Shown: piece by piece, positions 33,901 to 57,508 of the stretch
Layout: every line of letters begins with the position of its first letter
Numbering within the stretch: the stretch's first letter is position 1
Assembly (NCBI GenBank): GCA_038874595.1
Contig: JAVZCB010000002.1
Location: forward strand, 64,001 to 128,000
Reading direction: 5' to 3'
DNA from: Candidatus Micrarchaeia archaeon
Lineage (GTDB): Archaea; Micrarchaeota; Micrarchaeia; CAILAH01
Length of the DNA: 64,000 nt
The notes under the pieces: generated by a model
The model's database searches: none
Told to the model about the DNA's origin: nothing
What the model saw: only the letters and a program-made list of their open reading frames with translations
Program-made: the position numbers and the translations under genes

Positions 33901-36900
33901 GAATTTGTACCGTTATTCCTAACAGAATACCCCATACAATCAAACACAACGTTTGATGAGTTAATCTCAACACAGACCGCAATCTGTTTGTTAATGTCTG
34001 ATAGGTATACTGTATAAGGCGCCCCTGTGATGTTGTTATAAAGAACATAAGAGCCACTGCTGCTTATCTTAAAGCACTCACTATCGTTTCTCTGCAAAAT
34101 ACCGTACTCACTTAATGGAACCACATCCCTTAAGGATAGGAAATTTGACACTGTGTCTGGTGTGTTATTCAGCAAAACCCAGCCGTGGGTTGTATTATAT
34201 TTCCAAAGCTCAAGCTTCTGCTCCTTATAACCAACTGTCTCTGAATCAGCCCAGTGCCATTTTATGCTATCAATGGAAGGTGTCCCTTCAATGGGGGATA
34301 TCCTCAAATATTTGCCCCTGAAGGAAGACCTTTGTGTCGGCAAAGATGCTGGCTGTGACGTCCAATTAATTACGTAAGATGTGCCTGCATCTATAACATC
34401 ACTAAGGTATATTCGTGTATAGTTCACATAATTGCCGAGCGGGTTGTCTATTGATGTGTTGGTAATGTTTATTACAAACCCTGAAAATGTGCTATTAATG
34501 AAAATATCATAGCTGTTGTTGTATATGTGCTCATTTGAAACTATGGAGTTATTCTGATTCTCAAACACATACCCAACTATTGAGCTTGAATGTAACGTAT
34601 TATTGGCCAGGCTTGTGTTAACTGACCCGCTAATAGATGCTCCAACAGGATTTAGGTATATTGAGTTGTTTGCAGCATCGTTGTTGTTTGCCCTCAAAAA
34701 TAACATGCCTGCCATCCTATTGGCGTATAACCTATTGCCAAAGATGTTTGTATTGTTTACCCTGTCAAGGGATATTGCAACATAAGCATTTGTAATGTTA
34801 TTGAGCCAAATCGTGTTATTGAGGCTGCGTGTCAGGTCTATACCATTCACAGCCGTTCCTGAAATATTGTTTGCAATTATCGTTATGTTGTATGCATAAT
34901 AATTAACTTCTATCCCATGATAATTGCAGTTGTAGATTTGGTTATGTAATAAGAGATTGCCATTGCTGTTATACATGAATGCCACACAATCATAAGTTGA
35001 GTTATATATTGAGTTGTAAGAAATGTTATTGTAGTTAGACTCATTCACAAAGACTAAAAACGAGCTATTATAAAGAGAGCTATTTACAAGCGTGTTATTA
35101 TTTGACCTGATTAAAGCAAAGCTTACATTTACGTTGTGCCTTGCAGTATTATTCGCGAACTTGTTATTTGAGCTCCTATAAATAAAGAACCCGAACTGCC
35201 TGTTGCGCTCTGCGGTGTTGTTTACTAAAGTATTGTTATTGCTGCCTATCTGTATTGTGCTCTCATAATATACATTAAAGCCACCAATAGAATTGTTATA
35301 GGCTAGATTATTACTCACGCTGTTGTTCTGAGAAGACCCTATTGCAAACCCATACTGTGTGTTATTGTATGCTATGTTTGATGTGATGTTGTTGTATGAG
35401 CTCCAAGTGAAATCAAAACCATCTTTTGAGTTAGTATAAACTGTGTTGTTATGGATAGTATTATTCCTACCCTTATAAAACACACAACCCTCTTTTTTGT
35501 TGAGGTATATAACATTCTTTATAATACGGCTGTCATTAAGATTGCTCGAGTAGAAACCATCCTCAAAGTTGTCAAAGAATATGTTGCTATTAATCTCAAC
35601 ATTTCTTGAATCCAGAACTCTGGCACCGTATCCAAAATTCTGGCTGAAGGTGTTGTTTACTATTTTTGAGGATGTCACTTGCGATACATAAATCCCATCA
35701 TTGTTATTCTGCCCGCTGTTGTTTGTTATAATTATGCCATCTGCATTGTTAACGAAAATACCACCATATATTTGAGTGTTATAAACTTGGTTTTTAGTTA
35801 TGTTTATGCTGTTTGCCTCACTATATATACCTATTCCTGCATAAGACCAGTCAACCGTATTGTTTAAGATATTGCTGCTATTGACCCTGTAAACAAGAAT
35901 GCCGGCACCATCTGTAGAATAATTAATTGTATTGTTAGATATTAGAACATCTCTTGCCGTGCTTACAAATATTGAATGTGATTCCGAATTGTTTAACACA
36001 AGGCCTGAGAGGGTTATGTTCCTTCCAATATATACATATGCATTGAACTGAGAATCTTCTAATGTGGAATTTAACAGCTTAGTCAAATTTGAGTTGTAAG
36101 ATACATAGTTATAATCATAACCATCTACCTTACAGTTTGATACTGTAACATTCGTTACGGAGCCGTTTATAAGCATGCCGAACGAATCCTGCACACCGCT
36201 GTTTTTGATTGAATACCCTTCACAATCAAATATCACGTTTGATGCAGTAATCTTCACACATGCATAACCGCTGAATGGGTCTGCTGCGTTTGGAGCACCA
36301 GTATAATTTGAGTCCATCAGATACGCACCGCTCTCATTTATTATGGGGCAGTTTACGCTCTCAAGTATAGTATAATTGGAAAGCGGGATATGATTACTGA
36401 GAGAGAGTGTATTCTGCTGTATGTTGGGGGTGCTATTTAGCAGGTGCCAACCGGTTGAATTGCGCTTCCAAAGCTGCAGGCGGCCCTCATCATAGCCGGA
36501 TACTTCACTATCTTTCCATTGCCAGGAAATGCTATCTATAGATGGCGTTCCTGAAGCAATTTTAATATCAATAACCTTGTTCCTGAAAACCCTCTTCATC
36601 TTAGGTAGGGTTATTCCATTGAGAGAGCTCCAGTTTATGTAGTAAGATGCGCCTGCATCATAATTGTCAGTGAGGTTTAGTGTTGTGTAATTTACAAAAT
36701 TGCCGAGGGGGTTATCAATAGTAAGGTTATTTATGCGAATGTAGCTGCCTGAAGAGATGCTGCCAACATAGAAATCATATGAATTGTTGAAAAGATGGGT
36801 ATCGTTTGCTGTTAGTGCTGCTGGTGATTGCAGGAATAGCCCATAGCCAGAACCTGATATTTCATTATTCTTCATTGTTGAAGAGCTACCAGCAGTGAAA

Positions 36901-39900
36901 ATGCCATACAAGCAGTTATATACTGTGTTTCCCCTTACCTTATTGTTAAGGCCCCCTTCTATTATGCAATATTCGCTGTTTCCATAAACTGTGTTGTAAT
37001 CAATGAAGATATCTGAACAGGATGCACTCTCGAGGTGAATACCCCTCTTAAATTGTGTTATGATATTCCTTGTGATGTTAAAGCTCTCCCCACCCGTTTT
37101 CATATAGATGCCAACACCGTTTCCTCCTGGTCCAATCAACGTGTTGTTGAAATATTTGTTGTTTGTCCCACCCTCTGAATAAATGCCATGGTACTGCGAT
37201 TTTATTGTCGTGTTAATCACACTATTGTAATCGTTGTTGGTGCCTGCCAAATATATTGAATAATAGGCCTGTGTTATGTTTGAGCTGTTTATTATATTGT
37301 TATCTGCGTTGTAAATCAGGATACCTATCAAATCCGCATAAGAAGTGTAATTCTGCAAAATGTTATTACGCGAATTGAAAGCAATTGCTACTCCTGAAGA
37401 AATTTCACTACCTATATTTGTAGAAGTATATGAATCTGTAATATTATTGTAGTTAGAGTCGTTTATGGCAAAGCCAAACTGCGTGTTCTGATACGCACGC
37501 GAGTTCCGTATTAGAGTCCTATTTGACTTATGAAGCAGAATTCCATTCAATGTGTTGTAATATGCGCTAACGTTTGAAAGCAGATTGTTGTTTGATATCT
37601 CTAAATATATGCCGTCATTATTGTTGTGTGCAATTGAGTTTGTAATTAAGTTGCGCTGCCCGCCAATAATCCTAAATCCTGCAAGCGAATTATACCGAGC
37701 TGTTGAGAGATTTAATGATACATTTACATTATTGCCCAAATGTATGCCCACAAGATTTCTTTCTGCCGTAACGTTGCTAATAGATGAATTAAAGGAGGAA
37801 TGTATTATTATCCCGTAGTTAGTATTGTTTGCAAGCAAGCTGTTCCTGAACGTGTTGTTCTCTGAGTATCCTACATAGATGCCTGTGTTTGTGTTGTTAT
37901 GTATAGTGTTATACTGCGCAATAGAGTCGTTTCCATTATTTATTGAAAGCCCGATGGAATTCTTTCTGAGGATGTTCCCTGATATATAGTTGTTGTTTGC
38001 ATTCTGTATATAAATGCCGTTCTCGCTGTTGTAAACAACATTGTTTGTAAAGTTGTTGTAGCCAGAGAAGGTTGCTATGCCTCCATAAGGTGTACAGCTA
38101 TAAACGGTATTATTATCTATCAGGTTGTAAGGTGATGATGTGTATGGTACTATGCCTGCCGCGGCATTGTATACTTTGTTCCCCCTTATGATGTTGCGGT
38201 TCGAAACATCTATGAGAATACCAACACCGCCTGAATTGCTAACAGTATTGTTTTCAACAAGATTTCCATAAGATTCAAGGTACAGCTGAATACCGTGCTC
38301 CTCGCTTGAGTCTACAGTGTTGTTAATCAGCTTGCTGTCAAAGACACCCTGTAAGAATATGCCGTTTTTATATCCGGTTATTGAACAGTTCTTAACAGTT
38401 ACATTATCCCTGTATACAGACAACACACCTATAGCATTGCTCACACCATTATTGGATATAGAATAGCCGTTGCAATCAAATTCAACATTTGAAGTGTTAA
38501 CAAAAATGCATACATTCTTGTTTACATAGGGTAGCCCTGTGTTTGGCGCACCGTATATATCATTGCGTATAGTATATCTTCCTGGCTGGTTTATTACCAT
38601 ACATATTGATGTTGTATTCTCCAAAATCCCGTATATGCTGGCTGGATTATGATTGAATAAAGAGAGCGTATTAAAGTTCACATCGGGACTTTGGTTTACC
38701 TGCGACCACACCCCGCTGCTATATTTGAACAAGCTAAACCTGTTTTCATTATAACCGCTCGTTTCCTGGTCATCCCAATGCCATACTATCTTATCTATTG
38801 AAGGGGTCCCTGAAACCGTAGATATGTCTACAAATTTCCTTCTAAATGAAACTGCATCGGTAGGCAATGCACTCGAGTTTGTTGTCCATTTTATGTAATA
38901 TTGCTCAGAGGACGGGACAACATCGTTTAGAGATAATATAGTATAATTTTGCTTTATGCCGGCAGGGCTATCTATCATCACGTTTGAAAGATTGTATGTA
39001 AGAGGGCCATTTAAAACGCGAATATCATTAGTGTTGTTGTAATAATGATCCCTGTCTACAAAAACATTTGTCGCGTTATTTATCCATAATGAGTAATATT
39101 GGTTTGTGCCTATCGTATTGTTGTAGAGAGATATGGTATTTGCCTTTGTGTTAAGATAAATACCCACATAGTTCTGCCGGCCGGTATTGTTTGCCAGTGT
39201 TGTGTTGTATGCGCTCTGGTAAATCTCATAAGCATAGTATGAGCATTTGCTTGCATTGTTGAATGCAACTATGTTGTGGCTTGAACTGTACCCTATAGCA
39301 TAGCCGTCGCGCGTAAAGTTATATGCGCGGTTCCTGAATATCTTGTTATAATTGGACGACCCTACAACAACGTAGCCATATCTGCCATTGTAGATATTGT
39401 TAAGTGAAATGTTATTGTAATGGGAAGCTGTTAAATAGACAGTATAACCATAGTTGGTATTTGTATAATTATAGAGCGTATTGTTGATAACTTTGTTATA
39501 TGAGGAGCTTGCCAATGAGATGCCATAAACATTACCACTATGCACCGTGTTATCCTGTATTGTTGTGTTCTGTGAGCTGCCTAAAGCAATCCCGTTATTT
39601 GTGGTGTAATATATCCTGTTTGACGTGATTGTGTTGTTATGGCTTGTATCTATGTATACTCCATAACGGCCAACACGATAAATGGTGTTATTATGTATGA
39701 GGTTTTTGTTTGAGGTTAAGGATACATAAACGCCATCCTGTGCTGATTGGTAAATTATGTTGCGTGTGAGATTATTGCTGGGAGATAAATACCTCACTGC
39801 CAGCCCACCTAATGTATTATTATAGAGGGTATTGTTTGTCAGAAGGTTATTCTGGGAATTATAAAATATGATTGCACCATATTGTGAGTTGTTGTAGATT

Positions 39901-42900
39901 GTATTTTTGTATATCTTGTTATTCTGTGCATTATACGTTGCAATTCCTTGCGTATAGTTAAGTACTTTGCAGTTCCTTATCGTAACATTTGACCGTGTGG
40001 AATCTACAAGTATACCAACAGCACCATTCGGTCCGAGCGTGCCATCATTTTTCACTGCGTACCCCATACAATCAAGAATAACGTTTGATGCATTAACATC
40101 TATACACGCTCTGACCTGCATCCCGACTTCTGGCAGAGAAACGAGTACTGGCGCACCAGTAACATTGTTGAATAAGATATACGTGCCAGATGAAGATATT
40201 ACTCCACAAGATGAGCCTGTGAAACTGAATAAGCCATAAACCGCTGGGAAGTTAACATTTGACAGACGTATTTGGTTGTTTGCAGTGTCCGGAGTGTTAT
40301 TGAACAAAACCCAACTGCCACTTGTATAGTTGTACCCCCATAACTCGAACGTGCCCTCATCATACCCCGGCAGCTCACTATCACTCCACGTGAATACAAC
40401 ATTGTCTATGCTTGTTGTTGTGCTGTTTATCAAGACATATTTATCTTTGAAAGAGACCCTGCCGGCTGGAGGGGACGCCGGTGCAGATGACCATTTCATA
40501 TAATACGGGATAGAGGAGGTATCTGTGAAGGACAAATTAGTGAATTTGCTTAAACCGTTTGTGGGCGAATCAAATGTTATGCCTGCGGCGGTTATTGAAG
40601 ATGAAGTATCAGGATAAAATACAAAATCAGTACTGCTCCCATTGTATATTCTCATATTTGATAAAGTAACCTGCGAAGATGTAATGTATAAGTTATGCTG
40701 GCTTGAGTGGTAAGTTGAATTTGAAATCTGGATATTATCGTCTTTTATAACCCTTAGCCCATACGCTCCAAAAGAAGCTGTGTTGTTCTTGATTATGTTA
40801 TATGATGTAAAGTGCGCAAAGTTTTGTGATATGATGTTTGCACTTGATGAGTTATAAACCGTGTTGTTTACTACTGTTATATTATAGGTGTTGTGAAGGA
40901 GGTTTATACCAACCCAGTTATTGTGTACTTTGTTATTTGTAATAATCGAATTTGATGCATTATACACTGTTATCCCATACATGTATTTAGATACGTTACA
41001 GTTCTTTACGGTTACATTTGACCGCCGTGTATCAACAAATATGCCCCCTGTGGTGCCACCAACATCTGTGTTTCTTATGAAATGGCCATCACAATCAAAA
41101 ACAACGTTTGATGCGTTTATCTCCACACACACCTTGGCGTCCATACCTAAATCGGCCAGATGTACATCAATTGGTGCACCTTCAAGGTTATTCTTTATTT
41201 TGTAGTTGCCGCTCTCGTTTATTATTATACAGGAATAAATGTCTGATGAGGTGGTATAACCACTGAACGAGGTTACATTAAACAAGACGTAATCCCCTGT
41301 GCAGGAGAGCAGCCTGCAGTTTGGGCACAAAAGGCCATATGTCAAAATCTCATTTCGTGATGTCGGGAACCCCGGCTTTTTGTATATTTTGAGCTTATTG
41401 CATGATGATGTGTTAAGTGTTATATTGGCAGGGATGTTTGTAAGTGTCGGCGCGTTTAAAGACACAAAATCTGGGGCTGCACGATAGTTAGTGGTATTTA
41501 CATCTGTGTACTGGATGTAAAAATCACCCATCTTTATCTTTCCAATCGATGAGTTATACCCCATCACCAACCCAACAAAACGTGGATTCTTCAGATAATT
41601 TACGGACCGGTTAACGAATAATGGAGATGAGGTGTTGTAAATTTGGATGTTATTGAACACAATCGCATAATCTCCTGTACCAACAAGGTAGTTTATGGCA
41701 TATAATCCATAGTTTGTTGTATTTTGTATATATGCGTTTTCTATTTTTGCAAATGTCACATTGTTAAGATATAACCCATAGCCACCACAGTTAGAGAACG
41801 AGTTGTTAAGGAATTTGTTAACCCCTTCGTACATAAATTCCCTGATGATCATACAGCTGCTCCCACACCTGTTAATTGAGTTGTTTGCAATTAATATCTC
41901 CTTTCCATACGAGACATCTGCTCCATCAATTACATCTACAAGCTGATTATTCGTAATATTAGAATAAGCAATCTCGGATAAAACAATTCCGTTTGAGTTT
42001 GATGAGAAAGTATTATTATTAAATTTAAAAAAACTTAGGGTTGTACCTGTAAGTTTTCTTGTGTTCGTAAAAGTATTATTTTCGAATTTAGATATCAAAA
42101 CGTTTGATACTACGCTCTGGCCAGCATCTACAAAACGGTTATCATAAACATCAATAGAGATTAGATTCTTTATATGTAATGCGCCTTCCATCCCCTTTAT
42201 AGTGTTGTTATAAATTTCAGTGTAAGCTAAATTCATTTCATCAGAATATGCTGTAATGCCCCATGCACAACCTCCGCATTTTCCATCTATGTGGTTATTG
42301 AATATCTGAAGAGAGTTTGGGTTCGCAACGCTTTTTAGGTAATAAATAAATATTCCACCAAGGTCTGAAATCAAAAGTGATCCTCCAAATGGGCCCTCAA
42401 TGGTATTATTATATATCGAAGATGAATGTATTGAATTTGCTAAAATAGTAATTCCTCCATTTGTATCTTTAATCGTATTGTTATATACCTTGGCATTTTG
42501 CATATCAATCATAACTATAGCTGTAGGTACTCCAAATTCTTGAGTATCTATAAACTGCTCAAAATAATTTCCACTGATATTCAAACCATCTTTTGATGAG
42601 GCAAAATAAATACTTATGGCATTTTTATAAAACGTGTTATATACAAACGTGATGTTTTCAGCAACTCCGGTTATAAAAAAACCAACACCTGTATTTGTTA
42701 CGTTATTTTTAGCGATTGTCACATTCTTTAAGGTCGTGACACAAGAAAAACAGGACTTTAGTAAATAACAGGTGTTGTTATAAAATGAGATATTCTCTAT
42801 GAGCTTATTTGATATATCCATATCTTTCAGTAAGTATGTACCGTCTTTTGCAATGTTGTTAGATATATTTGAATTAATCATATTTCGCACATAGATATAT

Positions 42901-45533
42901 CCCTTGTTATCCTGAATCTCACAGCCACTTGAATTCATAAAACGGTTCCCAATTATACGACTTTCACTAATATTTAATGCGATAATACCACTGCAGAATT
43001 CAGATTTACCTATATTTTGCACATTATTGCGGTTGATTGATACATTATACAAGTTTGAATAATACGAGAAAACAACAGAGGTTATTGTTTGAGGGAGGCG
43101 AGATGTGTTAACTAAATCAAGCGTATTCCCTGATATCTCGGAATTTGCAAGGATTTCAACTAGATAATTAACATAAACACCTATTGACGTGTTGAATATC
43201 TTATTATTTGATATGTTTATGTCCCAGAGGGTTTTCTTAAAGCTAGGGGATAATGTTCCTTCAGAAAGAGATACGCCAAAAGTACAGCTGGAAATGTTGT
43301 TTGATGATATCTCAATGTTGCTTGCTTTTGATATTTCTACAAATGATTGATAAAGCGGATCGTTTGCCGGCTGGTTTGGAGGGGGGTTTATCTTGTTATG
43401 GCGGATTATATCCTTTGTTGAATCCTGTTTATTTTCAAAAATAATTGCAGGAACGTTTTCACTAAGTAATCTCCTATTGAATTTATTATACTGAATTGAG
43501 TTCCCGCCATAATAATTCTGTATATATATCTCTAAAACTAAACTATAAAATGAGTTATTGAAGATTGTTGCGTTGCTCTCGTTTAACCATATACCGGTAA
43601 TGATGCCGTTAATGCGGTTTGAGGCAACACTTATATTTCTTGATTTTATTACATGTAAGGCCAGAATATCAACAGTTGAAAAATTAAAGACGCTGTTTGC
43701 TATAATTGATGAGTTTGTATTAACAAATTTAACACTTTCATTATTGGTCTTAAAACCAAATTGTGTGGAATTTACTATTATATATTTTGAACCCTCAGTG
43801 TATATACCTGCATTTGTGTGGCCTTCAATCAGCCCTTTTTGAATGGTTGTGTACTCAGAATTTACACTACATACTCCTCTATAGCCATAGTATGTTTGTA
43901 TAGGGATACCTCCTGTATAAACAGTGAAGTTGCTCCTATCAATAAATGAGCCCGTGCTTGAGATGATGTTTACACCACAATACTCATTTGCGAGCAATTT
44001 TGAGGTTCTTATTAAGGTATTATTGCTACTCGTGACCAAAATCCCATCATACTTATTCCTCCTTGCAATTGAATTTGTTATATTCACATCTAGGGAATTA
44101 GAAAGTGATATCCCCACCCCTCCTATCTTTGTTCCGTAAACTATTGTTCCATAAGCATTGTATACATTTGTGTTAGTTATTTCTGAGTTGTTTACATTGT
44201 CAAAAAGTATATTCACACCATACCCAGTAACCGTACAAGATGTTATTAGAATATTGCGCCTGTTCTCAGCATAAATTCCTACTGAAGTGGCATCATTTGA
44301 TGAAGATGAAATCGTATACCCATTACAGCTTAAGATTACGTTGTTTGCGTTTATGTTTATGCAATGGTTATCTGACTGCACACCTGAGATAGACCTCATC
44401 AAAACATAGGTATTGCCTTCTGTGTCAAGGTTTCCACAAAATCCAATATATATTGTTGGGTCAAGCGTAACCCATCCTTCAGGTGTGTAAAACCTCATAG
44501 ACCACTCCACACTTTCACTTGCATTTACTCTGAGGAACACTGTTTTTGACTCACCCGGACCAAGTATTACAGCATCGTAGTCCCTGCCCGCGGCCTTGGG
44601 CTTCTTCTTACTTACCTTCTCATAAATCTTAAACCCTGCTTCTGTCTTTTTGCCTCTATGCAGAGAAACCGCTTTTACTGCTTTTGCATCTGAAAATTTT
44701 GCATCATCCATCAATATTTCTACAGTGTTCTGGCTATCCATATTTTCAATATCTATTGGTACATCACAGATGTTATCATATAGACAATATACCTCCTTAT
44801 CTGCTGATATCCTTATGCTACCTGATGAAACCACCTTTTTATTATCAGCCACACTCTCTTGATAGTTTGCTGTCCTTGATAAATCAATATCTTCTGTGAG
44901 TGTATAATCATCAATCGCTGTTTGGTTTAAACCAATACCTAGTTCACTGCTGGCATTACTTAACGGCTCTTCAGGTGCCAGCCCCCAATCAATTGCACTC
45001 TCATCAGCCGTCTCATCGCTAGGAGGTTCCATCGAATTTGCTTCAGAAAAGTTGCTCTCAGGGACAGGTGGCAAAGGCTCACTTGCTATGTCCACTATAT
45101 CCACGTATAGGCCTGTTGCGTTCTGGGTTTTATCCTCATCAACCTGGATCTTGCTTATATCTGCATATATCGCATTATTGGAGGAGATATCCATCTCATC
45201 AATATCCGATTTAATATTATCAGCGTTCCATTGCTGCATTTCCTGCTGCTCTGATAAGTCTTCATTATCTGGATTATTCGCTTGCAGCGGCAGGCCAACG
45301 CTTGGCAGCACACCTGCTTCGTTTTGGGTTGAGGAGGGAGGTTGTGCTGTATCTGTATTCCATTTCGTCTGCATTTCATCCTGAATAGCAAAAGATTCGT
45401 TAGAAACATTCCCAATCTGTTGTGTATAAATGCTAAACGTATCATTAGAAAACGTCGCAAATATGCTCAGCAATGCTAAGAACAATGTTATATCTAATAT
45501 AAAAACAAAGACTGCCAAACGCCCATGCATCAA
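30945..45533 (-). CDS. Giant beta-helix surface protein, 4862 aa: six tandem modules and a C-terminal pilin-like 'A' domain
   Basis: N-terminal hydrophobic segment, acidic linker, six C..I...G.Y.L.....G...C....(A)SNV..(D)C.GY modules, linker domains, C-terminal WQRFFGNVNGSIYL...TITIYIELE. Confidence 0.85.
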   Translation of the reverse strand: MMHGRLAVFVFILDITLFLALLSIFATFSNDTFSIYTQQIGNVSNESFAIQDEMQTKWNTDTAQPPSSTQNEAGVLPSVGLPLQANNPDNEDLSEQQEMQQWNADNIKSDIDEMDISSNNAIYADISKIQVDEDKTQNATGLYVDIVDIASEPLPPVPESNFSEANSMEPPSDETADESAIDWGLAPEEPLSNASSELGIGLNQTAIDDYTLTEDIDLSRTANYQESVADNKKVVSSGSIRISADKEVYCLYDNICDVPIDIENMDSQNTVEILMDDAKFSDAKAVKAVSLHRGKKTEAGFKIYEKVSKKKPKAAGRDYDAVILGPGESKTVFLRVNASESVEWSMRFYTPEGWVTLDPTIYIGFCGNLDTEGNTYVLMRSISGVQSDNHCININANNVILSCNGYTISSSSNDATSVGIYAENRRNILITSCTVTGYGVNILFDNVNNSEITNTNVYNAYGTIVYGTKIGGVGISLSNSLDVNITNSIARRNKYDGILVTSSNNTLIRTSKLLANEYCGVNIISSTGSFIDRSNFTVYTGGIPIQTYYGYRGVCSVNSEYTTIQKGLIEGHTNAGIYTEGSKYIIVNSTQFGFKTNNESVKFVNTNSSIIANSVFNFSTVDILALHVIKSRNISVASNRINGIITGIWLNESNATIFNNSFYSLVLEIYIQNYYGGNSIQYNKFNRRLLSENVPAIIFENKQDSTKDIIRHNKINPPPNQPANDPLYQSFVEISKASNIEISSNNISSCTFGVSLSEGTLSPSFKKTLWDINISNNKIFNTSIGVYVNYLVEILANSEISGNTLDLVNTSRLPQTITSVVFSYYSNLYNVSINRNNVQNIGKSEFCSGIIALNISESRIIGNRFMNSSGCEIQDNKGYIYVRNMINSNISNNIAKDGTYLLKDMDISNKLIENISFYNNTCYLLKSCFSCVTTLKNVTIAKNNVTNTGVGFFITGVAENITFVYNTFYKNAISIYFASSKDGLNISGNYFEQFIDTQEFGVPTAIVMIDMQNAKVYNNTIKDTNGGITILANSIHSSSIYNNTIEGPFGGSLLISDLGGIFIYYLKSVANPNSLQIFNNHIDGKCGGCAWGITAYSDEMNLAYTEIYNNTIKGMEGALHIKNLISIDVYDNRFVDAGQSVVSNVLISKFENNTFTNTRKLTGTTLSFFKFNNNTFSSNSNGIVLSEIAYSNITNNQLVDVIDGADVSYGKEILIANNSINRCGSSCMIIREFMYEGVNKFLNNSFSNCGGYGLYLNNVTFAKIENAYIQNTTNYGLYAINYLVGTGDYAIVFNNIQIYNTSSPLFVNRSVNYLKNPRFVGLVMGYNSSIGKIKMGDFYIQYTDVNTTNYRAAPDFVSLNAPTLTNIPANITLNTSSCNKLKIYKKPGFPTSRNEILTYGLLCPNCRLLSCTGDYVLFNVTSFSGYTTSSDIYSCIIINESGNYKIKNNLEGAPIDVHLADLGMDAKVCVEINASNVVFDCDGHFIRNTDVGGTTGGIFVDTRRSNVTVKNCNVSKYMYGITVYNASNSIITNNKVHNNWVGINLLHNTYNITVVNNTVYNSSSANIISQNFAHFTSYNIIKNNTASFGAYGLRVIKDDNIQISNSTYHSSQHNLYITSSQVTLSNMRIYNGSSTDFVFYPDTSSSITAAGITFDSPTNGLSKFTNLSFTDTSSIPYYMKWSSAPASPPAGRVSFKDKYVLINSTTTSIDNVVFTWSDSELPGYDEGTFELWGYNYTSGSWVLFNNTPDTANNQIRLSNVNFPAVYGLFSFTGSSCGVISSSGTYILFNNVTGAPVLVSLPEVGMQVRACIDVNASNVILDCMGYAVKNDGTLGPNGAVGILVDSTRSNVTIRNCKVLNYTQGIATYNAQNNKIYKNTIYNNSQYGAIIFYNSQNNLLTNNTLYNNTLGGLAVRYLSPSNNLTRNIIYQSAQDGVYVSLTSNKNLIHNNTIYRVGRYGVYIDTSHNNTITSNRIYYTTNNGIALGSSQNTTIQDNTVHSGNVYGISLASSSYNKVINNTLYNYTNTNYGYTVYLTASHYNNISLNNIYNGRYGYVVVGSSNYNKIFRNRAYNFTRDGYAIGYSSSHNIVAFNNASKCSYYAYEIYQSAYNTTLANNTGRQNYVGIYLNTKANTISLYNNTIGTNQYYSLWINNATNVFVDRDHYYNNTNDIRVLNGPLTYNLSNVMIDSPAGIKQNYTILSLNDVVPSSEQYYIKWTTNSSALPTDAVSFRRKFVDISTVSGTPSIDKIVWHWDDQETSGYNENRFSLFKYSSGVWSQVNQSPDVNFNTLSLFNHNPASIYGILENTTSICMVINQPGRYTIRNDIYGAPNTGLPYVNKNVCIFVNTSNVEFDCNGYSISNNGVSNAIGVLSVYRDNVTVKNCSITGYKNGIFLQGVFDSKLINNTVDSSEEHGIQLYLESYGNLVENNTVSNSGGVGILIDVSNRNIIRGNKVYNAAAGIVPYTSSPYNLIDNNTVYSCTPYGGIATFSGYNNFTNNVVYNSENGIYIQNANNNYISGNILRKNSIGLSINNGNDSIAQYNTIHNNTNTGIYVGYSENNTFRNSLLANNTNYGIIIHSSFNSSISNVTAERNLVGIHLGNNVNVSLNLSTARYNSLAGFRIIGGQRNLITNSIAHNNNDGIYLEISNNNLLSNVSAYYNTLNGILLHKSNRTLIRNSRAYQNTQFGFAINDSNYNNITDSYTSTNIGSEISSGVAIAFNSRNNILQNYTSYADLIGILIYNADNNIINSSNITQAYYSIYLAGTNNDYNSVINTTIKSQYHGIYSEGGTNNKYFNNTLIGPGGNGVGIYMKTGGESFNITRNIITQFKRGIHLESASCSDIFIDYNTVYGNSEYCIIEGGLNNKVRGNTVYNCLYGIFTAGSSSTMKNNEISGSGYGLFLQSPAALTANDTHLFNNSYDFYVGSISSGSYIRINNLTIDNPLGNFVNYTTLNLTDNYDAGASYYINWSSLNGITLPKMKRVFRNKVIDIKIASGTPSIDSISWQWKDSEVSGYDEGRLQLWKRNSTGWHLLNSTPNIQQNTLSLSNHIPLSNYTILESVNCPIINESGAYLMDSNYTGAPNAADPFSGYACVKITASNVIFDCEGYSIKNSGVQDSFGMLINGSVTNVTVSNCKVDGYDYNYVSYNSNLTKLLNSTLEDSQFNAYVYIGRNITLSGLVLNNSESHSIFVSTARDVLISNNTINYSTDGAGILVYRVNSSNILNNTVDWSYAGIGIYSEANSINITKNQVYNTQIYGGIFVNNADGIIITNNSGQNNNDGIYVSQVTSSKIVNNTFSQNFGYGARVLDSRNVEINSNIFFDNFEDGFYSSNLNDSRIIKNVIYLNKKEGCVFYKGRNNTIHNNTVYTNSKDGFDFTWSSYNNITSNIAYNNTQYGFAIGSSQNNSVSNNLAYNNSIGGFNVYYESTIQIGSNNNTLVNNTAERNRQFGFFIYRSSNNKFANNTARHNVNVSFALIRSNNNTLVNSSLYNSSFLVFVNESNYNNISYNSIYNSTYDCVAFMYNSNGNLLLHNQIYNCNYHGIEVNYYAYNITIIANNISGTAVNGIDLTRSLNNTIWLNNITNAYVAISLDRVNNTNIFGNRLYANRMAGMLFLRANNNDAANNSIYLNPVGASISGSVNTSLANNTLHSSSIVGYVFENQNNSIVSNEHIYNNSYDIFINSTFSGFVINITNTSIDNPLGNYVNYTRIYLSDVIDAGTSYVINWTSQPASLPTQRSSFRGKYLRISPIEGTPSIDSIKWHWADSETVGYKEQKLELWKYNTTHGWVLLNNTPDTVSNFLSLRDVVPLSEYGILQRNDSECFKISSSGSYVLYNNITGAPYTVYLSDINKQIAVCVEINSSNVVFDCMGYSVRNNGTNSIDGSIGVLVDANRQNVTVRNCKVQNYTHGVTTYLASGNFIHNNTVFNNSQFGILLAYMSNYNNVENNTLYNNSAAGLGAYISSQYNNFTNNTAYSNLYGFYIYASNSNKIIRGKSSNNSYGVRIEYSNNNNFTLYNSSNNSYDGFYLIGSVQNIINSSIASFNSQNGIVLRDGSTDNVIRNSTFTRNTAAGISIIRDSHNSKILQNNVSFNGQGGMIIHSYNLVLSVMYTNLSGNDIYNNSQFGILIGDRSPYSYIYNNSIHHNYGDGVLTASSNNTLMLNKVYRNQGHGLYFYPSRNQTIYGNSVYNNSYGITLSYCGNSSIILNNVTQNSNAGMLIYGTESTIITNNTVRLNQEGMLFQSNSQNNFIGSNKIANNSYYGIHMVESGNNLIKNNIFENHTTNNGKSILAEFVSNITVVENVFRMNYEHIRLRNSATSNISENNMSLSYSHATNVYNSSRINVSSNRISFAVFGGGIVYELGNLSVAYRNVINNSAFGIATNSSNHSIFENNTVYNCGSGAYAGYVIYQSDNNTMRNNIGYNNNPDGVLVYMSTRSNIINNTMYSNTKNGFDVFESSYNALNNNTAYLNGEYGFILNGAVYNNVTGGKSYNNSYSGYLLIGGTNNRLVNVSSYNNTQHGVMLDGTGYNLIANSTFIDNKYSGVHFLGVSEDNFIEFNYIRNPSALYGGVYIISSVRVYANNNTVVSNTYGINSVNSNTIFLSGNNISRNTVKGIYLDQNSLTYTLSSNYICFNDNMDIENNYINGMISSSGQKDYCDYWYQWAENNHYGCEFSCSGLWQRFFGNVNGSIYLTDSEGGLSRYVYKWNDAKAVNVYFADGDSIIDWQALQAIGRDTSGGASSNDFIELDTAFSSTSFPDNINKTYSIDGTIPKETDSYAIYKRTVENVPVANSSLRPTQFKTGILWDTSDGGSEYSGTQSTVWAVKASPSPEPDTYGEYMYAAMIPYTLATYEGAGNTITIYIELE

Positions 45534-47610: not shown

Positions 47611-48417
47611 TTATTGTTGTGCCTTTGATATTATTCCAGCCAGTTCCGTGCCTATTTCAAGGATTTCATTATTGCTGAGCTCAAAGATGCGTTTTGAAAG
47701 GCCGTATTTATCAAACTGTTTTGGTATGGCGACGGGCTTTTTGCCTGCGACCTGCTTAAGTATTACCTTAAGTGAGGAGGCAAGCGTTTTCGGCCGATGC
47801 TGGAAAAGCATCGTTATTGCTGATGAAACTTCTTTGCTGAGTGGTGCAACCTTCTTAGGGACGAGCTCTATGAGCATTGAATCAACCTTTGGCACCGGCC
47901 TGAATGCTTGGCGCGGGACTGTAAATAGTGGCTCCATATCAAAGTAATACTGGCTGAAGAAAGACAGGCGCGATTTAACTTTGCCAGCCTCAAGCATTTT
48001 TAGGCAGAACTCTTTCTGGTACATCAGCACCGCACGCTTAAACCTCCAGTCAAGCAGGCGGAAAGTAATTTGCGAAGAAATATAATATGGGATATTACCG
48101 CAAACAATGTCTACTTTGAATGGAGCAATCCCAAGAAAATCCCCTTCTATCACTTCAACATTATATCCTTCAAATTTATTCCTGAGAATGGAGGCATATT
48201 CCGCATCTTTCTCGATTAGGAAAAGCTTTTTTGCACCAAGCGAGATGAGCCTTTCTGACAGCCTGCCATCTCCCGCACCTATCTCAACAATAGTCTTCTG
48301 GGAAGGGGCAACCAACTCCGCCTCAGCATCAAGATACTGTGCACTTGAAAGAAAACACTGGCCAAGTGATTTACTTCTTTTAAGGAAAAACTGCCGCCTC
48401 GATGTTTCACCTGACAT
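47611..48417 (-). CDS. ksgA: 16S rRNA m6,2A dimethyltransferase KsgA/Dim1
   Basis: SLGQCFL, VEIGAGDG, GNIPYYISS, FRPVPKVDS. Confidence 0.92.
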   Translation of the reverse strand: MSGETSRRQFFLKRSKSLGQCFLSSAQYLDAEAELVAPSQKTIVEIGAGDGRLSERLISLGAKKLFLIEKDAEYASILRNKFEGYNVEVIEGDFLGIAPFKVDIVCGNIPYYISSQITFRLLDWRFKRAVLMYQKEFCLKMLEAGKVKSRLSFFSQYYFDMEPLFTVPRQAFRPVPKVDSMLIELVPKKVAPLSKEVSSAITMLFQHRPKTLASSLKVILKQVAGKKPVAIPKQFDKYGLSKRIFELSNNEILEIGTELAGIISKAQQ

Positions 48418-48421
48418 GGTT

Positions 48422-48994
48422 TTACCTGTACCTTGCAGGCCTTACAAACAAGTAATACTTTGAGCCTTGGAGCTCTTCCTCAACCCTCTGCGCAAGGAAA
48501 TCTGGAAGCCTGTTTATGTGTATACGCTTTTCGATATCCATGAAACTCTCGAATGGCTTCTTTGAGCGCTCTTCAACAATCGATGTCATTATTTTCTTGC
48601 CTATGCCGGGGATAAGCTCAAGCTGGTGGACGCGAATATTTATCGGGCCGCTCCTGTTAAAGAAGTCAACAAATTCCTGCTCCCTCAACGAAATTATCTT
48701 TGTTATGACATCGTGCAGGCTGCTTCTTGACGCGGAAGTAAGGTCATTAAAAAACACGCGGCCTTTTATACTTGCAATCTTATCACGCTCGCCCTTCCCG
48801 ACGTAAACACGCTCGCCAACTGTGAATGTCACACCTACTTTTGGGTAGGCTTCGAGTATTGTGAAAAACTTCTCACCAATAAGCTGTACAACGGGCTGCC
48901 TACGCGGGTCATCTGACTTACCGTAGGGAAGAAAGTCCAGGACGTATGCATTCTCTTCCATCTGCTTCTCAAATGATGCGCGCTCTTGCTCCAT
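48422..48994 (-). CDS. DUF655 family putative RNA-binding protein
   Basis: EENAYVLDFLPYG, HQLELIPGIGKK, PFESF; conserved position after rpoF. Confidence 0.9.
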   Translation of the reverse strand: MEQERASFEKQMEENAYVLDFLPYGKSDDPRRQPVVQLIGEKFFTILEAYPKVGVTFTVGERVYVGKGERDKIASIKGRVFFNDLTSASRSSLHDVITKIISLREQEFVDFFNRSGPINIRVHQLELIPGIGKKIMTSIVEERSKKPFESFMDIEKRIHINRLPDFLAQRVEEELQGSKYYLFVRPARYR

Positions 48995-49003
48995 ACAAAC
49001 AAC

Positions 49004-49336
49004 CTACAACGCAGACAATATGTCAAGCACCTGCTTTGCCTGGGCGCTCGTTATATCGCGTTTCTCCTGCTGAAATATAAGCTTAACTTCCTCCTCGGTC
49101 TTTGGCATGAGATCAATCAGCTTGACTGCCATAGCTTCGGAAGCAAACTGTAAATCTGCTATCTTATGCATAAGCTCGTGCGCTTTCGCGACACTCACGT
49201 GGCTGTACTTCTGTGCATAGTCAAGCGTAGCCTTCTGCTCAAAGCCAAGCTCGCCTTCCTTCTGCCTTTCCTCAAGTATATTTGCAACTTCACAGAGCGG
49301 AACCGCCCTTGCACTCTTTATCTCCTTACCTATCAT
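49004..49336 (-). CDS. rpoF: DNA-directed RNA polymerase subunit F (Rpo4)
   Basis: MIGKEI...LGFEQKATLDYAQK...AVKLIDLMP; synteny with rpl21e. Confidence 0.9.
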   Translation of the reverse strand: MIGKEIKSARAVPLCEVANILEERQKEGELGFEQKATLDYAQKYSHVSVAKAHELMHKIADLQFASEAMAVKLIDLMPKTEEEVKLIFQQEKRDITSAQAKQVLDILSAL

Positions 49337-49354
49337 CGCCACACCATTTTTGCG

Positions 49355-49633
49355 TTATCGTGCCATCTCAAGATGGACTGGCTGGGAGATAAGCCTCTTC
49401 TTCATCCCACCGTCCTGTATCTCAACGATGTATGAGCTGCCTTGCTTGCCAACGATGGTGCCATGCTTGCCCCTATATCGAGGGTGAGGCATGCCGCCGT
49501 GGCCTGCCTTAATGCATATTGTTACCTTGTCGCCTTCCTTAAATACCTTGAACACCTTTGTTACGCCCAGCCTGCCCTGCGATTTGAGAGACCGCGTATA
49601 TGTAGATAATGTTCCTCTTGACCGCTTAACCAT
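49355..49633 (-). CDS. rpl21e: 50S ribosomal protein L21e
   Basis: MVKRSRG, FKEGDKV, GMPHPRYRGKHG, KRLISQPVHL. Confidence 0.95.
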   Translation of the reverse strand: MVKRSRGTLSTYTRSLKSQGRLGVTKVFKVFKEGDKVTICIKAGHGGMPHPRYRGKHGTIVGKQGSSYIVEIQDGGMKKRLISQPVHLEMAR

Positions 49634-49754
49634 TTTAAACAACCTTCCCCACACTGCTGATGGATGTGGTTTCTACCTGATGGGATATTTGGGTTTTAAT
49701 ACCTTTTTAAACTTAACTTGATAGTTATATATATGTATTTAAAAAGGTGGTTGT

Positions 49755-50045
49755 ATGCCTAAAAAACCAAAAAGAATTCCTCAACCAAAGTTCAGGATTG
49801 AAAACATCGTAGCATCAGCAGCGCTTAATGTTGAGCTTGACCTTTACTCAATTGCTATGGAAGTCGATGATGTGGAGTATGAGCCGGAGCAGTTTCCGGG
49901 TGCAATACTCAAGCTGAAAAACCCAAAGGCATCGCTCCTGCTTTTCAAGAACGGCAAAATCATATGTACAGGTGGGAAGAGCGAGGAAGAAGTTAAAAAC
50001 GCAATAATGCGCGCAATTAAAATCCTCACACCATACATAAAGTAA
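49755..50045 (+). CDS. Single-repeat (half) TATA-binding protein
   Basis: IENIVASA, YEPEQFPGAI, LLFKNGKIICTGGKS form one TBP repeat only. AAGGTGG RBS; TAA stop abuts the convergent dhs gene. Confidence 0.85.
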   Translation: MPKKPKRIPQPKFRIENIVASAALNVELDLYSIAMEVDDVEYEPEQFPGAILKLKNPKASLLLFKNGKIICTGGKSEEEVKNAIMRAIKILTPYIK

Positions 50046-50050
50046 CCTTA

Positions 50051-52729: not shown

Positions 52730-55700
52730 TTACCTGAACACTACCCCTGGAGGGGATGAGTCATCGCCTGGAAGGTGCGGCTTATACCCAAGCGGTGGCT
52801 GGGTGGATATTTCATTGTTACTGCTTGAGATTTCTTTTGTGTCCTGCCCATGTTTAGCGTTCCTCTGGCTTTCCTCAGCTTTTCTCTGGAATTCCTTGTT
52901 TATTATTATCTTACCGCTGTCCTCTGAAAGGTAACCCTTCTCTATAAGCTCATCAACAGCTACGCCCACCCTGCCTTTAAATTTAGGTATCATTTTAGGT
53001 GCACCGAAGATTACCAATACTTCGCGTGGGATATCCTCACGCGCAATGCTTATCGCATTGCTTACCACAAGAAGCACTGCAAGCCGTATCTCTGGTGCTG
53101 GGATATAATTGAGCGGGCGGATTTCAGCATCACTTCTCCTTATGTTAAACATAAACCTGGGCTCGCCTGGCCAATACAACTCACCATCAATTTTTATGTC
53201 CTGGCACGGCAAGTGCAAGTTGAGAACTTCATCAAACCTGTTCCTTGCACGCACACCATCCTTGACACCGTAACACTCAAAAATGCGCTTCATCAGCAGG
53301 TCGCGATGTATCGGCCCTTCAGATTTTATGATATCGCGCACACTGTTAAAGAAGTCAGTCTTCATAAAATCGTCAGGTGAGCCGAGCATGGGGCACACGA
53401 TTGTAGGATATTCTTTTATTGCAAATGAGAGCTCGTTATCTGCAAGCAGTTGGCGCTGCCTGGTGCCTTCGTGGTTATCCTGCGCCCGGGTGATTTTCGC
53501 ATCAGGAATTTTAAGGTGCTCAAGTATGCGCTCGGCCTCCTTATCTGGGTTAAGCACCCAGTCATAAGACCATATACGGTGAACCTTCCAGCCAAGAGAT
53601 TCAAGAACCTCGCGCCTGAGCCTGTCGCGGTCACGTGTGCTTTTTGCGCTGCCATATGCCTTGCTATCAAGCTCAATAGCGAGCAGGTAACGGTTGCTAT
53701 CCTCGCTGCTCTTGACTGCAACATCTATGTTGAACCTTGAGCTGCCAACACTTTTATCAACCATAAGGCCATAGGAGAGCAGTTTCCTGTAAACCGCTTC
53801 TTGCAGCTCTGAGTCAAACTCGCTTTGCCTCTTAACCTGTGCTTCGCCTGCTCGCGCATACTGCAAGTATTTCTTGAGCAGGAGTATGCCTTCACTGCCA
53901 ACGCGCAATTCGTTGATATCTTCTGGTAATATTGAAGATACAACTTTGATGCGTTCTATTGCTCTGGATATTGCAACGTTAAGCCTCCGCACGCCGCCAT
54001 CACGGTTGAGTGGGCCAAAGTTGAGTGATAAGTTTCCCTCAGCGTCACGGCCGTAGCCTACGCTCAGTATTATTACATCGCGCTCGTCACCCTGTACTGT
54101 CTCAAGGTTTTTCACGAAAAACCCGCGCAGGTTGCTGCCGTTAAGGAATCTTTGGTATGACGGGTGCCATGTAATAAAGTGGTCAAGCTCTTCAAGTATC
54201 GCCTGCTGCTGTGCAATGCTAAATGCGATTACGCCGAGTGATTTCTCCGGCGTCGTATCATAATGCTGCTTAATGAGCTCAACCACCTTCTTTGCCTCAA
54301 CGCGGTTCTGGCGGCTGCCTCCACGCTCATACACGCCGTTGTGAACGTATACAAAGTCGATTGCAAAGCTATCAACCAGGTTGTTCGGGAAGGTTATAAG
54401 GTCCCCATTATAGAAATACTTGTTTGAGAAGTCTATCAGAGATTCATCCTTGCTCCGGTAATGCCAGCGAAGCATATGTGTTGGGAGGGCTGCAGACGCC
54501 TCATCGAGTATGCTTGCTGCCTCTTCCATTCCCTCTTCAATATCAAGGTCCTCATTAACTTTGAAGAACATCGTGGGAGGTAGCTGCTTTGAATCGCCAA
54601 CTATTATCACCTGCTTGCTGCGTATTATTGCGCTTATTGCATCCTCAACCATAACTTGAGATGCCTCATCAAATATTACTGTATCAAATTCGATTACATC
54701 TGGGTCAATGAACCTGGCGACCGAAAGCGGGCTCATCATAAAGCACGGCTTAAGGACGAATACAAGGTTCTTTATTTCTGAGAACAGCTTGCGCAGTGGC
54801 TTGTGCCTCCTGCTCTTGCTTATCTCCTTTGAGAGTATACCTACCTCTGAGCTGCGCGATGTCAAGCTTATCTTTGGCTTTTTTGCCTCAATCATCTCAA
54901 TGATGCGGTTGCGCGAATAGAACTTGTGCTCCCTATCACTTTCAATAAACTTGCTGTATACCGTGTCCAGGTACTCGCGGCTCTTCCTTGCAATCTCTAC
55001 ATCCATCTGTGAGAGGCACTCCTGCAAGAAGACCTTTTCGTAAAGCTCGCTTAACTTGTAGTTGCGCTCCTCGATTGAAATATATTTATCAAAAACTCTC
55101 CTCGGCTCTGGTGATAGCTTGTCCAGGGTTGCCTTAAACTCAACCCATTTTGATATCTCGCCGGCTTTATTAGAGATGTATTGGAGCCGCTCCTCGAGCC
55201 GCTCCCAGGACGCAGAGAGCAGGAGCCGTTCTGATGCCTCCGTCTCAAAGTATTCGCTTATTGCTAAGTAACTATCCGTAAGTGCGCTTGCATGCGCCGA
55301 AAACTTCTGCGCCAGTGATGCAAAGTCGGCGCCGTCACACACAGAGCGGATAAGCCGGCCGTTGCACATACCTTCAATTGATTTGAGACCCCGTATCCAG
55401 GAGAATATTGCCTGCAGCTCGGCTGGTTCCAGCCGCTCCTCCTTTAGGATACTTTTTATCTCACGCTCCTGTTCTGAAATTTCATTCCAGATGCCTTTGC
55501 ATAACATTGCCTTGCGTATATCGTTCGCCATCTCCTCGTGTGTCAAGTTGGCCTTCTCAAGAAGCAACGCGTGCATATGGTTAGAAATCTTCTTGTACCG
55601 CGGGTCCACCCACCGAACCACCTTAACGGAATACAATCCATCTAATTTTGATACCATATCCTCAAGCTCGTGGTATGAGTGGTTCAGCAGGTTTTCCTTA

Positions 55701-57508
55701 TACTTTGAGAGGAGATATTTGCGCAGTGCTGTATATTCCCCAACCTTGACAATATACTTGTTGAGGCGCATCTCAATATCATCAATATCAATACCAAACC
55801 ATTCCTCATGTATGCGGTAGGATGTTTTTGGCTGCCTTGCCAAGAGAGATATCTTGCCTTCCATCAGCCTGAAATCAAGCAACCTCTTAAAATATAGACC
55901 TGCCTTTTCTTCAAGCTGCCTGCTCTCCTCTTTTATATACTGTATAACCTCAATAGCATTGCCTATGTGCTCCTTTAAAGACTCCTGCTTGAAATCCGTG
56001 AACGCCCTGAAATTCTTATGGTTGACATAGCGAAGGATGCTTGTGTTAAACTCACGCAGCTGGTCTTCGTAGAGGTCAATCTCTTCCATAATGCGCATAT
56101 TATGCTGGAACTCACTGAAATCTGGATGCACACTAAGCCCCACATCTGAGATTTTGACGTGCTCAAGCCGCGCCAGGCGCCCAAGTATCCTGTATAAAGG
56201 CATCTGCACGCTGCCGCTACTCATCAGCTCATCACCGTATGCCTTTAGCACGTTGCGGACATCCTTAAGCTGGTCTATGAGTTGCTCATTGCTTGCATAA
56301 AGCCTGTTCTCTACTAGTGCCTTCTCAAACTGCTCAAGCACCCATTTCTTACCTGCTGTGTCTGCGTTGTGCATCTCAAGCAGGTAAGTGCCTATGCCTG
56401 TGGAATCAAGCCGTTTCTTAACAACTTCAAGTGCGGCCATCTTCTCACTGACAAACAACACCTTTTTGCCATCAGCGAGCTGCTGCGCAATTATGTTTGC
56501 AATCGTCTGGGATTTGCCGGTGCCTGGCGGCCCTTGCAGCACGAAGCTCAGGCCTTTTCGTGCAGCTATTATGGCCTCCTGCTGGCTTGAGTCAGCATCA
56601 AGTACAAAAAATGACTCTTTTGGGTCCAGCGTGTCCACATCTATACTCTCGGGCGGTTGGTAGTGGAGCGCACTCGTATCTCCTGCCAGTGCACGCACAA
56701 CAGGGTGTTTAAGTATGCGCTCCCTGTTTAATTCAAGGTCCCTGTAAAGTGAAAGCTTCTGGAATGAGAATATTCCAAGGTATACTTCATCTGAAGTTAC
56801 TCTCCAACCATATTTTTTCACTTCGGTGGACAATTTGTTAAGGTATTCGTCTAGCGTCTCAAACGGGAAATCAATATCAATACCATTCTGCAGGAGCAGT
56901 TTCTGTCTAAGTGCCGGGTTGATGTGTATATCATCGTCAAGAAATGTGATTGAAAAGGGGTGCTTATCACGTGCTGCCTCTTTCCTGCGCTCAATTTTTA
57001 CCGGGACGAGGATGAGTGGTGCGCGTATTGAACTGCCCACAGCTGAGTTGTCAAGCTGTAGTTGGCCTGGTTGGTGTGATGCGCCCGCCCTGCCCTTCCC
57101 CTTTCTTCTTGTTGAATCGCCAGCCGAATCTATGCTTTCATACTCGAGACAGCCAAATGCCAAGTAAAGTGTGTTGACACCTTGCTCAGAGAGGCTCTCG
57201 CTTGATGCCAGGTAAATGCTGTAAAGCCGGCGGTATGTATCCGCATCGCTATGCTGTGTGCGTAGCACACCTGGCTTTTGGTCGGCTGAGCTGCTCTTTG
57301 CAAAATAGAACCTGCCTGTGCCTGAGATAAAATCATCATAAAACGCCTTCGGGTCTTTAAGGGACAGCTTTAGAGAAGATGCGCCGCCGTCCTTAAAATT
57401 AATGAGCCTGTTGCGCAGGGAGATGTCAAGCAGCTTGCCTTTCCATAACTCTATCTTCTTCTCAATCTTCTGCTCAATAGAAGTAGCCACTCCCTCCGGT
57501 TCGCCCAT
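52730..57508 (-). CDS. DUF4011 - SF1 (DNA2/NAM7-like) helicase - Vsr/MTES_1575-like nuclease - DUF3320 protein (Hhe-like)
   Basis: WKGKLLDISLRNRLINF; QGPPGTGKSQT; FDEASQ; GDSKQLPP; WHYRS; VQGDERD; RLNVAISRA; IDVAV...AIELD...RDRDRLR...LGWKVHRIWS. Confidence 0.88.
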   Translation of the reverse strand: MGEPEGVATSIEQKIEKKIELWKGKLLDISLRNRLINFKDGGASSLKLSLKDPKAFYDDFISGTGRFYFAKSSSADQKPGVLRTQHSDADTYRRLYSIYLASSESLSEQGVNTLYLAFGCLEYESIDSAGDSTRRKGKGRAGASHQPGQLQLDNSAVGSSIRAPLILVPVKIERRKEAARDKHPFSITFLDDDIHINPALRQKLLLQNGIDIDFPFETLDEYLNKLSTEVKKYGWRVTSDEVYLGIFSFQKLSLYRDLELNRERILKHPVVRALAGDTSALHYQPPESIDVDTLDPKESFFVLDADSSQQEAIIAARKGLSFVLQGPPGTGKSQTIANIIAQQLADGKKVLFVSEKMAALEVVKKRLDSTGIGTYLLEMHNADTAGKKWVLEQFEKALVENRLYASNEQLIDQLKDVRNVLKAYGDELMSSGSVQMPLYRILGRLARLEHVKISDVGLSVHPDFSEFQHNMRIMEEIDLYEDQLREFNTSILRYVNHKNFRAFTDFKQESLKEHIGNAIEVIQYIKEESRQLEEKAGLYFKRLLDFRLMEGKISLLARQPKTSYRIHEEWFGIDIDDIEMRLNKYIVKVGEYTALRKYLLSKYKENLLNHSYHELEDMVSKLDGLYSVKVVRWVDPRYKKISNHMHALLLEKANLTHEEMANDIRKAMLCKGIWNEISEQEREIKSILKEERLEPAELQAIFSWIRGLKSIEGMCNGRLIRSVCDGADFASLAQKFSAHASALTDSYLAISEYFETEASERLLLSASWERLEERLQYISNKAGEISKWVEFKATLDKLSPEPRRVFDKYISIEERNYKLSELYEKVFLQECLSQMDVEIARKSREYLDTVYSKFIESDREHKFYSRNRIIEMIEAKKPKISLTSRSSEVGILSKEISKSRRHKPLRKLFSEIKNLVFVLKPCFMMSPLSVARFIDPDVIEFDTVIFDEASQVMVEDAISAIIRSKQVIIVGDSKQLPPTMFFKVNEDLDIEEGMEEAASILDEASAALPTHMLRWHYRSKDESLIDFSNKYFYNGDLITFPNNLVDSFAIDFVYVHNGVYERGGSRQNRVEAKKVVELIKQHYDTTPEKSLGVIAFSIAQQQAILEELDHFITWHPSYQRFLNGSNLRGFFVKNLETVQGDERDVIILSVGYGRDAEGNLSLNFGPLNRDGGVRRLNVAISRAIERIKVVSSILPEDINELRVGSEGILLLKKYLQYARAGEAQVKRQSEFDSELQEAVYRKLLSYGLMVDKSVGSSRFNIDVAVKSSEDSNRYLLAIELDSKAYGSAKSTRDRDRLRREVLESLGWKVHRIWSYDWVLNPDKEAERILEHLKIPDAKITRAQDNHEGTRQRQLLADNELSFAIKEYPTIVCPMLGSPDDFMKTDFFNSVRDIIKSEGPIHRDLLMKRIFECYGVKDGVRARNRFDEVLNLHLPCQDIKIDGELYWPGEPRFMFNIRRSDAEIRPLNYIPAPEIRLAVLLVVSNAISIAREDIPREVLVIFGAPKMIPKFKGRVGVAVDELIEKGYLSEDSGKIIINKEFQRKAEESQRNAKHGQDTKEISSSNNEISTQPPLGYKPHLPGDDSSPPGVVFR

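Follow-up and report, generated by a model that had tools for sequence, protein, structure and literature searches.

The locus considered here lies in a stretch of 64,000 nucleotides (hereafter the window) from the genome of a Candidatus Micrarchaeia archaeon. An uninterrupted open reading frame of 96 amino acids, running from ATG to TAA on the forward strand (49755-50045), encodes one repeat of the TATA-binding protein (TBP), hence half-TBP. Its product consists of a basic N-terminal leader (residues 1-11) and a TBP repeat (residues 12-92), the latter matching profile positions 1-83 of 85 of the Pfam family PF00352 at 101.5 bits (E 2.3e-29; cut-off 22.9 bits). A ribosome-binding site, AGGTGG (49745-49750, forward strand), stands 4 nucleotides upstream of the ATG, with a similar motif in family relatives, and exactly 5 nucleotides (50046-50050) separate the stop codon from that of the convergent deoxyhypusine synthase gene (dhs, PF01916; 50051-51013, reverse strand). 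The reading frame and its one near-complete profile match bear out the original prediction of a single intact repeat, and the ribosome-binding site and narrow gap were likewise found as described there.

On the other side of the gene, the divergent rpl21e, rpoF (Rpb4), DUF655 and rsmA genes (47611-49654, reverse strand) are conserved neighbours which mark the tbp locus in Micrarchaeia and Iainarchaeota, whereas dhs is the downstream neighbour within the family only. Single- and two-repeat TBP genes alike stand divergently beside rpl21e-rpoF-DUF655. In a set of 80 loci from GTDB, this gene group adjoins 58 of the 69 that have a single repeat and 8 of the 11 that have two; the half-TBP occupies the site where relatives hold a two-repeat TBP. 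Six related loci (L206-L211) have T-rich tbp-dhs spacers of 350-530 nucleotides made up of variable internal repeats, which the strain of the window lacks; no Rfam match was found in the three spacers scanned. Further away in the window are a giant 4862-residue, Asn-rich repetitive reading frame (30945-45533, reverse strand), whose N-terminus is signal-like and which resembles surface proteins of the parallel beta-helix type, and a 1592-residue reading frame (52730-57508, reverse strand) that, by eye, shows motifs like those of superfamily 1 helicases and ends in a nuclease-like C-terminal region.

The probable tbp promoter (49701-49711, forward strand), with the TATA box TTTTTAAA at 49704-49711, is conserved in family relatives. 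An inverted copy of this 11-mer (49738-49748, reverse strand) probably serves the divergent rpl21e operon as its promoter. The inverted 11-bp pair, ACCTTTTTAAA / TTTAAAAAGGT (49701-49748, spacing 26 nucleotides), is itself conserved in family relatives and probably represents a pair of divergent promoters that overlap, one of them driving tbp and the other the rpl21e-rpoF operon. As read, each divergent transcript would cross the TATA box of the other promoter, and the second copy overlaps the tbp ribosome-binding site.

Residues and fold of the single repeat

TBP is described as a pseudo-dimer of two repeats, derived from one domain by duplication. As predicted, the half-TBP retains the NIVAS strand, both intercalating Phe positions and the YEPE motif, all of which could be located. 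In an alignment of 93 homologues, the strand 1 motif NIVAS (residues 17-21; 49803-49817, forward strand), where an antiparallel dimer interface is predicted with I18 at its centre, is invariant from I18 to S21 and nearly so at N17, which we take to be the dyad Asn of TBP. The segment YEPEQFPG (49878-49901, forward strand), invariant in the alignment, combines an acidic stirrup (YEPEQ, residues 42-46, 49878-49892; E43 and E45 invariant), which scores as C-repeat type, with the first intercalating Phe (F47, 49893-49895). The second (F64, 49944-49946) opens the segment F64-G73 (49944-49973, forward strand), which holds DNA-facing strands. Together with the stirrup residues E43 and E45, positions N17, V19, F47, P48, I51, L62, F64, K68 and T72 are invariant or nearly so; the roles of F47, F64 and the DNA-facing Val, Leu, Thr and Lys residues are presumed from established TBP-DNA structures. 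In known TBPs the acidic stirrup contacts TFB. Judged by these residues, the half-TBP presumably binds DNA and its stirrup would contact TFB.

An AlphaFold2 monomer model (mean pLDDT 80) superposes on a single lobe of solved TBPs from archaea and eukaryotes, with an rmsd of about 1-1.7 Å over about 76-80 residues and a TM score by target of about 0.4; every TBP entry matched in PDB searches has two repeats. The half-TBP thus shares the one-lobe fold of canonical archaeal TBPs (Methanocaldococcus jannaschii 2Z8U, Sulfolobus acidocaldarius 1MP9, Pyrococcus woesei 1AIS/1PCZ), as well as the dyad Asn, both Phe residues, the stirrup, about 42% identity to either repeat, and a genomic setting with TFB and TATA boxes. 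In contrast to canonical TBP, with two tandem repeats in about 180 residues, it has one repeat per chain and bears a lineage signature, FPGAILK and FKNGK, in which Ala50 and Asn66 replace the canonical Leu and Ser. It is a real, conserved and lineage-wide protein, TBP-like but with one repeat where TBP has two. Its named homologues are from Micrarchaeota, and the near-identical ones from Micrarchaeia.

The only detectable TBP, and its distribution

The half-TBP is the only detectable TBP of its genome (918 kb, assembled into 7 contigs and 93.5% complete). The original prediction called for a search for a full-length tbp or a second half, and neither was found with Pfam, tblastn or a profile built from 93 half-TBPs; the profile matched nothing besides the half-TBP at E values up to 10, and the next-best PF00352 match, on contig C1, lies under the cut-off (11.8 bits, E 0.15). 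The genome does encode two complete TFBs (C2:46200-46745 and C1:196462-197010), each of which has the TEVTIRNR helix as well as a zinc ribbon. Relative to the start codons of rough gene calls made within the analysis, TATA-like 8-mers are most frequent between -33 and -28 (56, the null mean being 19.5; a count reached in 0 of 500 permutations), and an A-rich signal upstream appeared in a TATA-seeded motif fit. With ordinary TATA promoters present, a TBP is needed. The half-TBP is presumably essential. The symmetry of these TATA boxes was considered as evidence for a homodimer and dropped, because the search pattern is itself symmetric and exact palindromes make up only 10 of 45 peak sites. A near-symmetric TATA consensus is common to many archaea and does not discriminate.

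A TBP match was found in 295 of 301 genomes of the class with a completeness of at least 85%; as these genomes are related and incomplete, the counts are descriptive. By hand count, 80 of the 301 hold exactly one repeat genome-wide (one being a weak partial match), including the single-contig genomes G101 and G113. Other arrangements occur as well. All nine genomes checked in family f5, part of family f9 and some Iainarchaeota have two separate halves, and two-repeat proteins are found in families f3, f8, f12, f13, f15, f18 and f29-f32. In 20 genomes around an Iainarchaeum record, the main copy is single-repeat in 15, two-repeat in 4 and fragmented in 1. The second, diverged single-repeat gene of f5 and f9 (L183-L191) lies away from the rpl21e locus and forms its own clade (100/98). 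Proteins with more repeats were also seen: L196 (G312:C8:9538-10695), from a genome of the Iainarchaeota survey, has four divergent TBP repeats in a 726-residue open frame, and three- and four-repeat proteins occur elsewhere too (P0128, P0394).

To our knowledge, the single-domain forms of TBP described so far are accessory. The original prediction had considered an alternative or dominant-negative factor, which would have its model in halobacterial TbpA, a non-essential single TBP domain found alongside full-length TBPs in the same species (PMC3597702), and would leave a full TBP in the unassembled part of a 93.5%-complete genome. We consider this very unlikely, since no full TBP was found in this genome or in 79 other single-repeat genomes of the class, single-contig ones included. 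Furthermore, the half-TBP sits at the two-repeat TBP locus of relatives, and the canonical TBP checked in a bin of the class (L149, G211:C43), one of the f5 genomes with two halves, matches a Nitrososphaerota protein at 100% identity, which marks it as bin contamination; L201 (G073:C77) resembles this case. Like TbpA, the half-TBP stands alone as one repeat and groups among true TBP domains, but it is the only TBP found, at a locus conserved across two phyla. The monopartite TBP-domain proteins of Thermococcales (P. furiosus NP_578195) are similar in length, at about 96 residues with a single TBP-fold domain, but are highly diverged and coexist with canonical TBP (PMC3597702), whereas the half-TBP scores 101.5 bits on PF00352 and keeps its functional residues. 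The TBP domain of RNase HIII and DNA glycosylase is also single-copy, but is fused to an enzyme and has no role in initiation; PDB searches with the half-TBP returned no match to these domains.

The half-TBP is under strong purifying selection. The conservation check suggested at the outset gave dN/dS values of 0.010-0.029 in comparisons with four members of the family (two others were saturated), and the identical 96-residue protein is encoded on 17 contigs (ENA, JGI, NCBI); in 5 of the 6 contigs shown, 49-51 of the 291 nucleotides differ from the window, all silently. These observations bear on whether a two-repeat gene was recently truncated or collapsed during assembly; two repeats at this locus in close relatives had been named as the sign of such an event. 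Such relatives do exist, namely the same-family genome G004 and the metagenome contigs L179 and L180. However, the half-TBP is present in seven family genomes from four genera and on those 17 independent contigs, and the 350-530 nucleotides 3′ of the stop codon in close relatives hold no remnant of a second repeat. At silent sites, the two repeats of G004 also differ less from each other (pS 0.44) than either does from any of the halves (pS 0.76-1.0). Both repeats of G004, as well as those of P0121, nest within the half-TBP clade of the family (99/89), and the linkers of both proteins look like the C-terminal end of a half joined to its own leader. The two-repeat genes of G004, L179 and L180 are therefore read as re-duplications and not as the source of a truncation. 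A recent truncation or collapse is largely refuted, and we find it hardly credible.

Repeat phylogeny and the question of ancestry

Inter-repeat identity is 85-92% in G004, L179 and L180, 48-92% in the two-repeat TBPs of the two phyla and 31-51% in canonical TBPs. In a mixture-model tree, which is unrooted, built on only 80 alignment columns and has bootstraps that are not fully settled, the halves and the N and C repeats of both phyla form one branch (100/99), apart from the canonical N (95/81) and C (88/88) groups. Approximately unbiased (AU) tests reject monophyly of the ingroup N repeats (p 0.0005) and of all N repeats (p 3e-5). They also reject histories in which re-duplication took place only once (p 5e-5) or in which one late halving occurred (p 0.001). 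Repeated gene conversion combined with repeated halving could yield a similar tree, and the linkers favour duplication for G004 and P0121 only. The best reading of these sequences is that the half form is old in the lineage of Micrarchaeota and Iainarchaeota and has been tandemly re-duplicated several times. Similarity between repeats has been proposed as an indicator of closeness to the ancestor (PMC4910066), but it would be unsafe as such because re-duplication resets the clock.

Compared with 114 canonical N and C repeats, the half-TBP is equidistant (41.6% and 41.4% identity) and intermediate in most segments. An assignment as an N repeat, a C repeat or a chimera of the two with one crossover gave no clear signal, the stirrup alone being C-type. 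Equidistance fits a relic that predates the founding duplication, and also fits a homogenised repeat collapsed to one. The canonical two-repeat protein P0416, whose nearest Atlas cluster is mostly Nanobdellota (a lead only), and the similar P0395, which groups with canonical N and C repeats, bear on this choice: P0416 suggests that other DPANN keep a two-repeat TBP, in which case, if DPANN are one clade, the half would be derived. The ancestral state raised in the original prediction is therefore compatible with equidistance and not established, equidistance being ambiguous and the tree unrootable. We think it rather unlikely that the half-TBP descends directly from the pre-duplication ancestor, with a homodimeric TBP predating the two-repeat protein of other archaea and eukaryotes and the founding duplication replayed independently many times in these phyla.

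A predicted symmetric homodimer

When two copies of the half-TBP alone were folded together, the ipSAE was 0.60, against 0.01 for the best of 3 controls; in calibration, 20 of the 30 solved homodimers scored this high, as did 1 of the 23 single chains. Runs share at least 85% of their contacts, with pLDDT of at least 86. In the model, strand 1 pairs antiparallel with strand 1′ (closest pairs 18-18′, 19-16′ and 17-19′) with helix 2 on top. Strand 1 paired with strand 1′, together with helix 2, is also where the two lobes of canonical TBP meet, and the prediction may have been carried over from solved two-repeat TBPs. The expectation that the half-TBP homodimerises into a symmetric TBP is supported by its status as sole TBP, by purifying selection and by this model, the dimer itself being a modelled one.

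We therefore favour, as the likely reading, a working TBP in the form of a symmetric homodimer oriented by TFB. Two half-TBPs would pair through strand 1 and strand 1′ to give an exactly two-fold symmetric saddle, in which the Phe pair of each subunit (F47, F64) would kink one end of an 8-bp TATA box and each subunit would present one acidic stirrup. As both ends of such a saddle are equal, the direction of transcription would have to be set by TFB through the BRE, as it is elsewhere among archaea. Archaeal directionality indeed rests on the reading of the BRE by TFB's second cyclin fold (PMC7289017), so that a symmetric saddle is viable in principle.

The half-TBP might instead act with a divergent TBP-fold partner missed by PF00352, or as a TFB-stabilised monomer on DNA. 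The two distinct single-repeat genes of f5 and part of f9 make heterodimers plausible in the lineage, the second half being a candidate partner that may pair with the first, and such pairs may likewise form in those Iainarchaeota that have two different halves; the weak match on contig C1 points the same way. On the other hand, the lineage profile finds nothing else in the genome, second halves elsewhere score 80-90 bits and would be detected, and the strand that would pair with itself is wholly or almost wholly invariant; we regard a different mode of action as quite improbable here.

A homodimeric reading would allow the homodimer TBP, long a hypothesis, to be put directly to the test with a single small protein. 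Where the sole TBP has one repeat, nature also offers a way to ask whether TFB and the BRE, as the only asymmetry, suffice for a symmetric TBP to initiate transcription in one direction. A core factor halved across much of two phyla would surprise the specialist, and within these phyla homodimer candidates exist alongside pairs of separate genes and re-fused tandems, a graded series for lobe specialisation. TBP has been listed as present in DPANN, its size not being remarked on (PMC8407392), and the account of single-domain forms predates these genomes (PMC3597702). Our literature search, which reached few subscription journals, found no report of a sole single-repeat TBP in Micrarchaeota or Iainarchaeota. 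Finally, the two TFB paralogues that accompany the one TBP may supply promoter selectivity.
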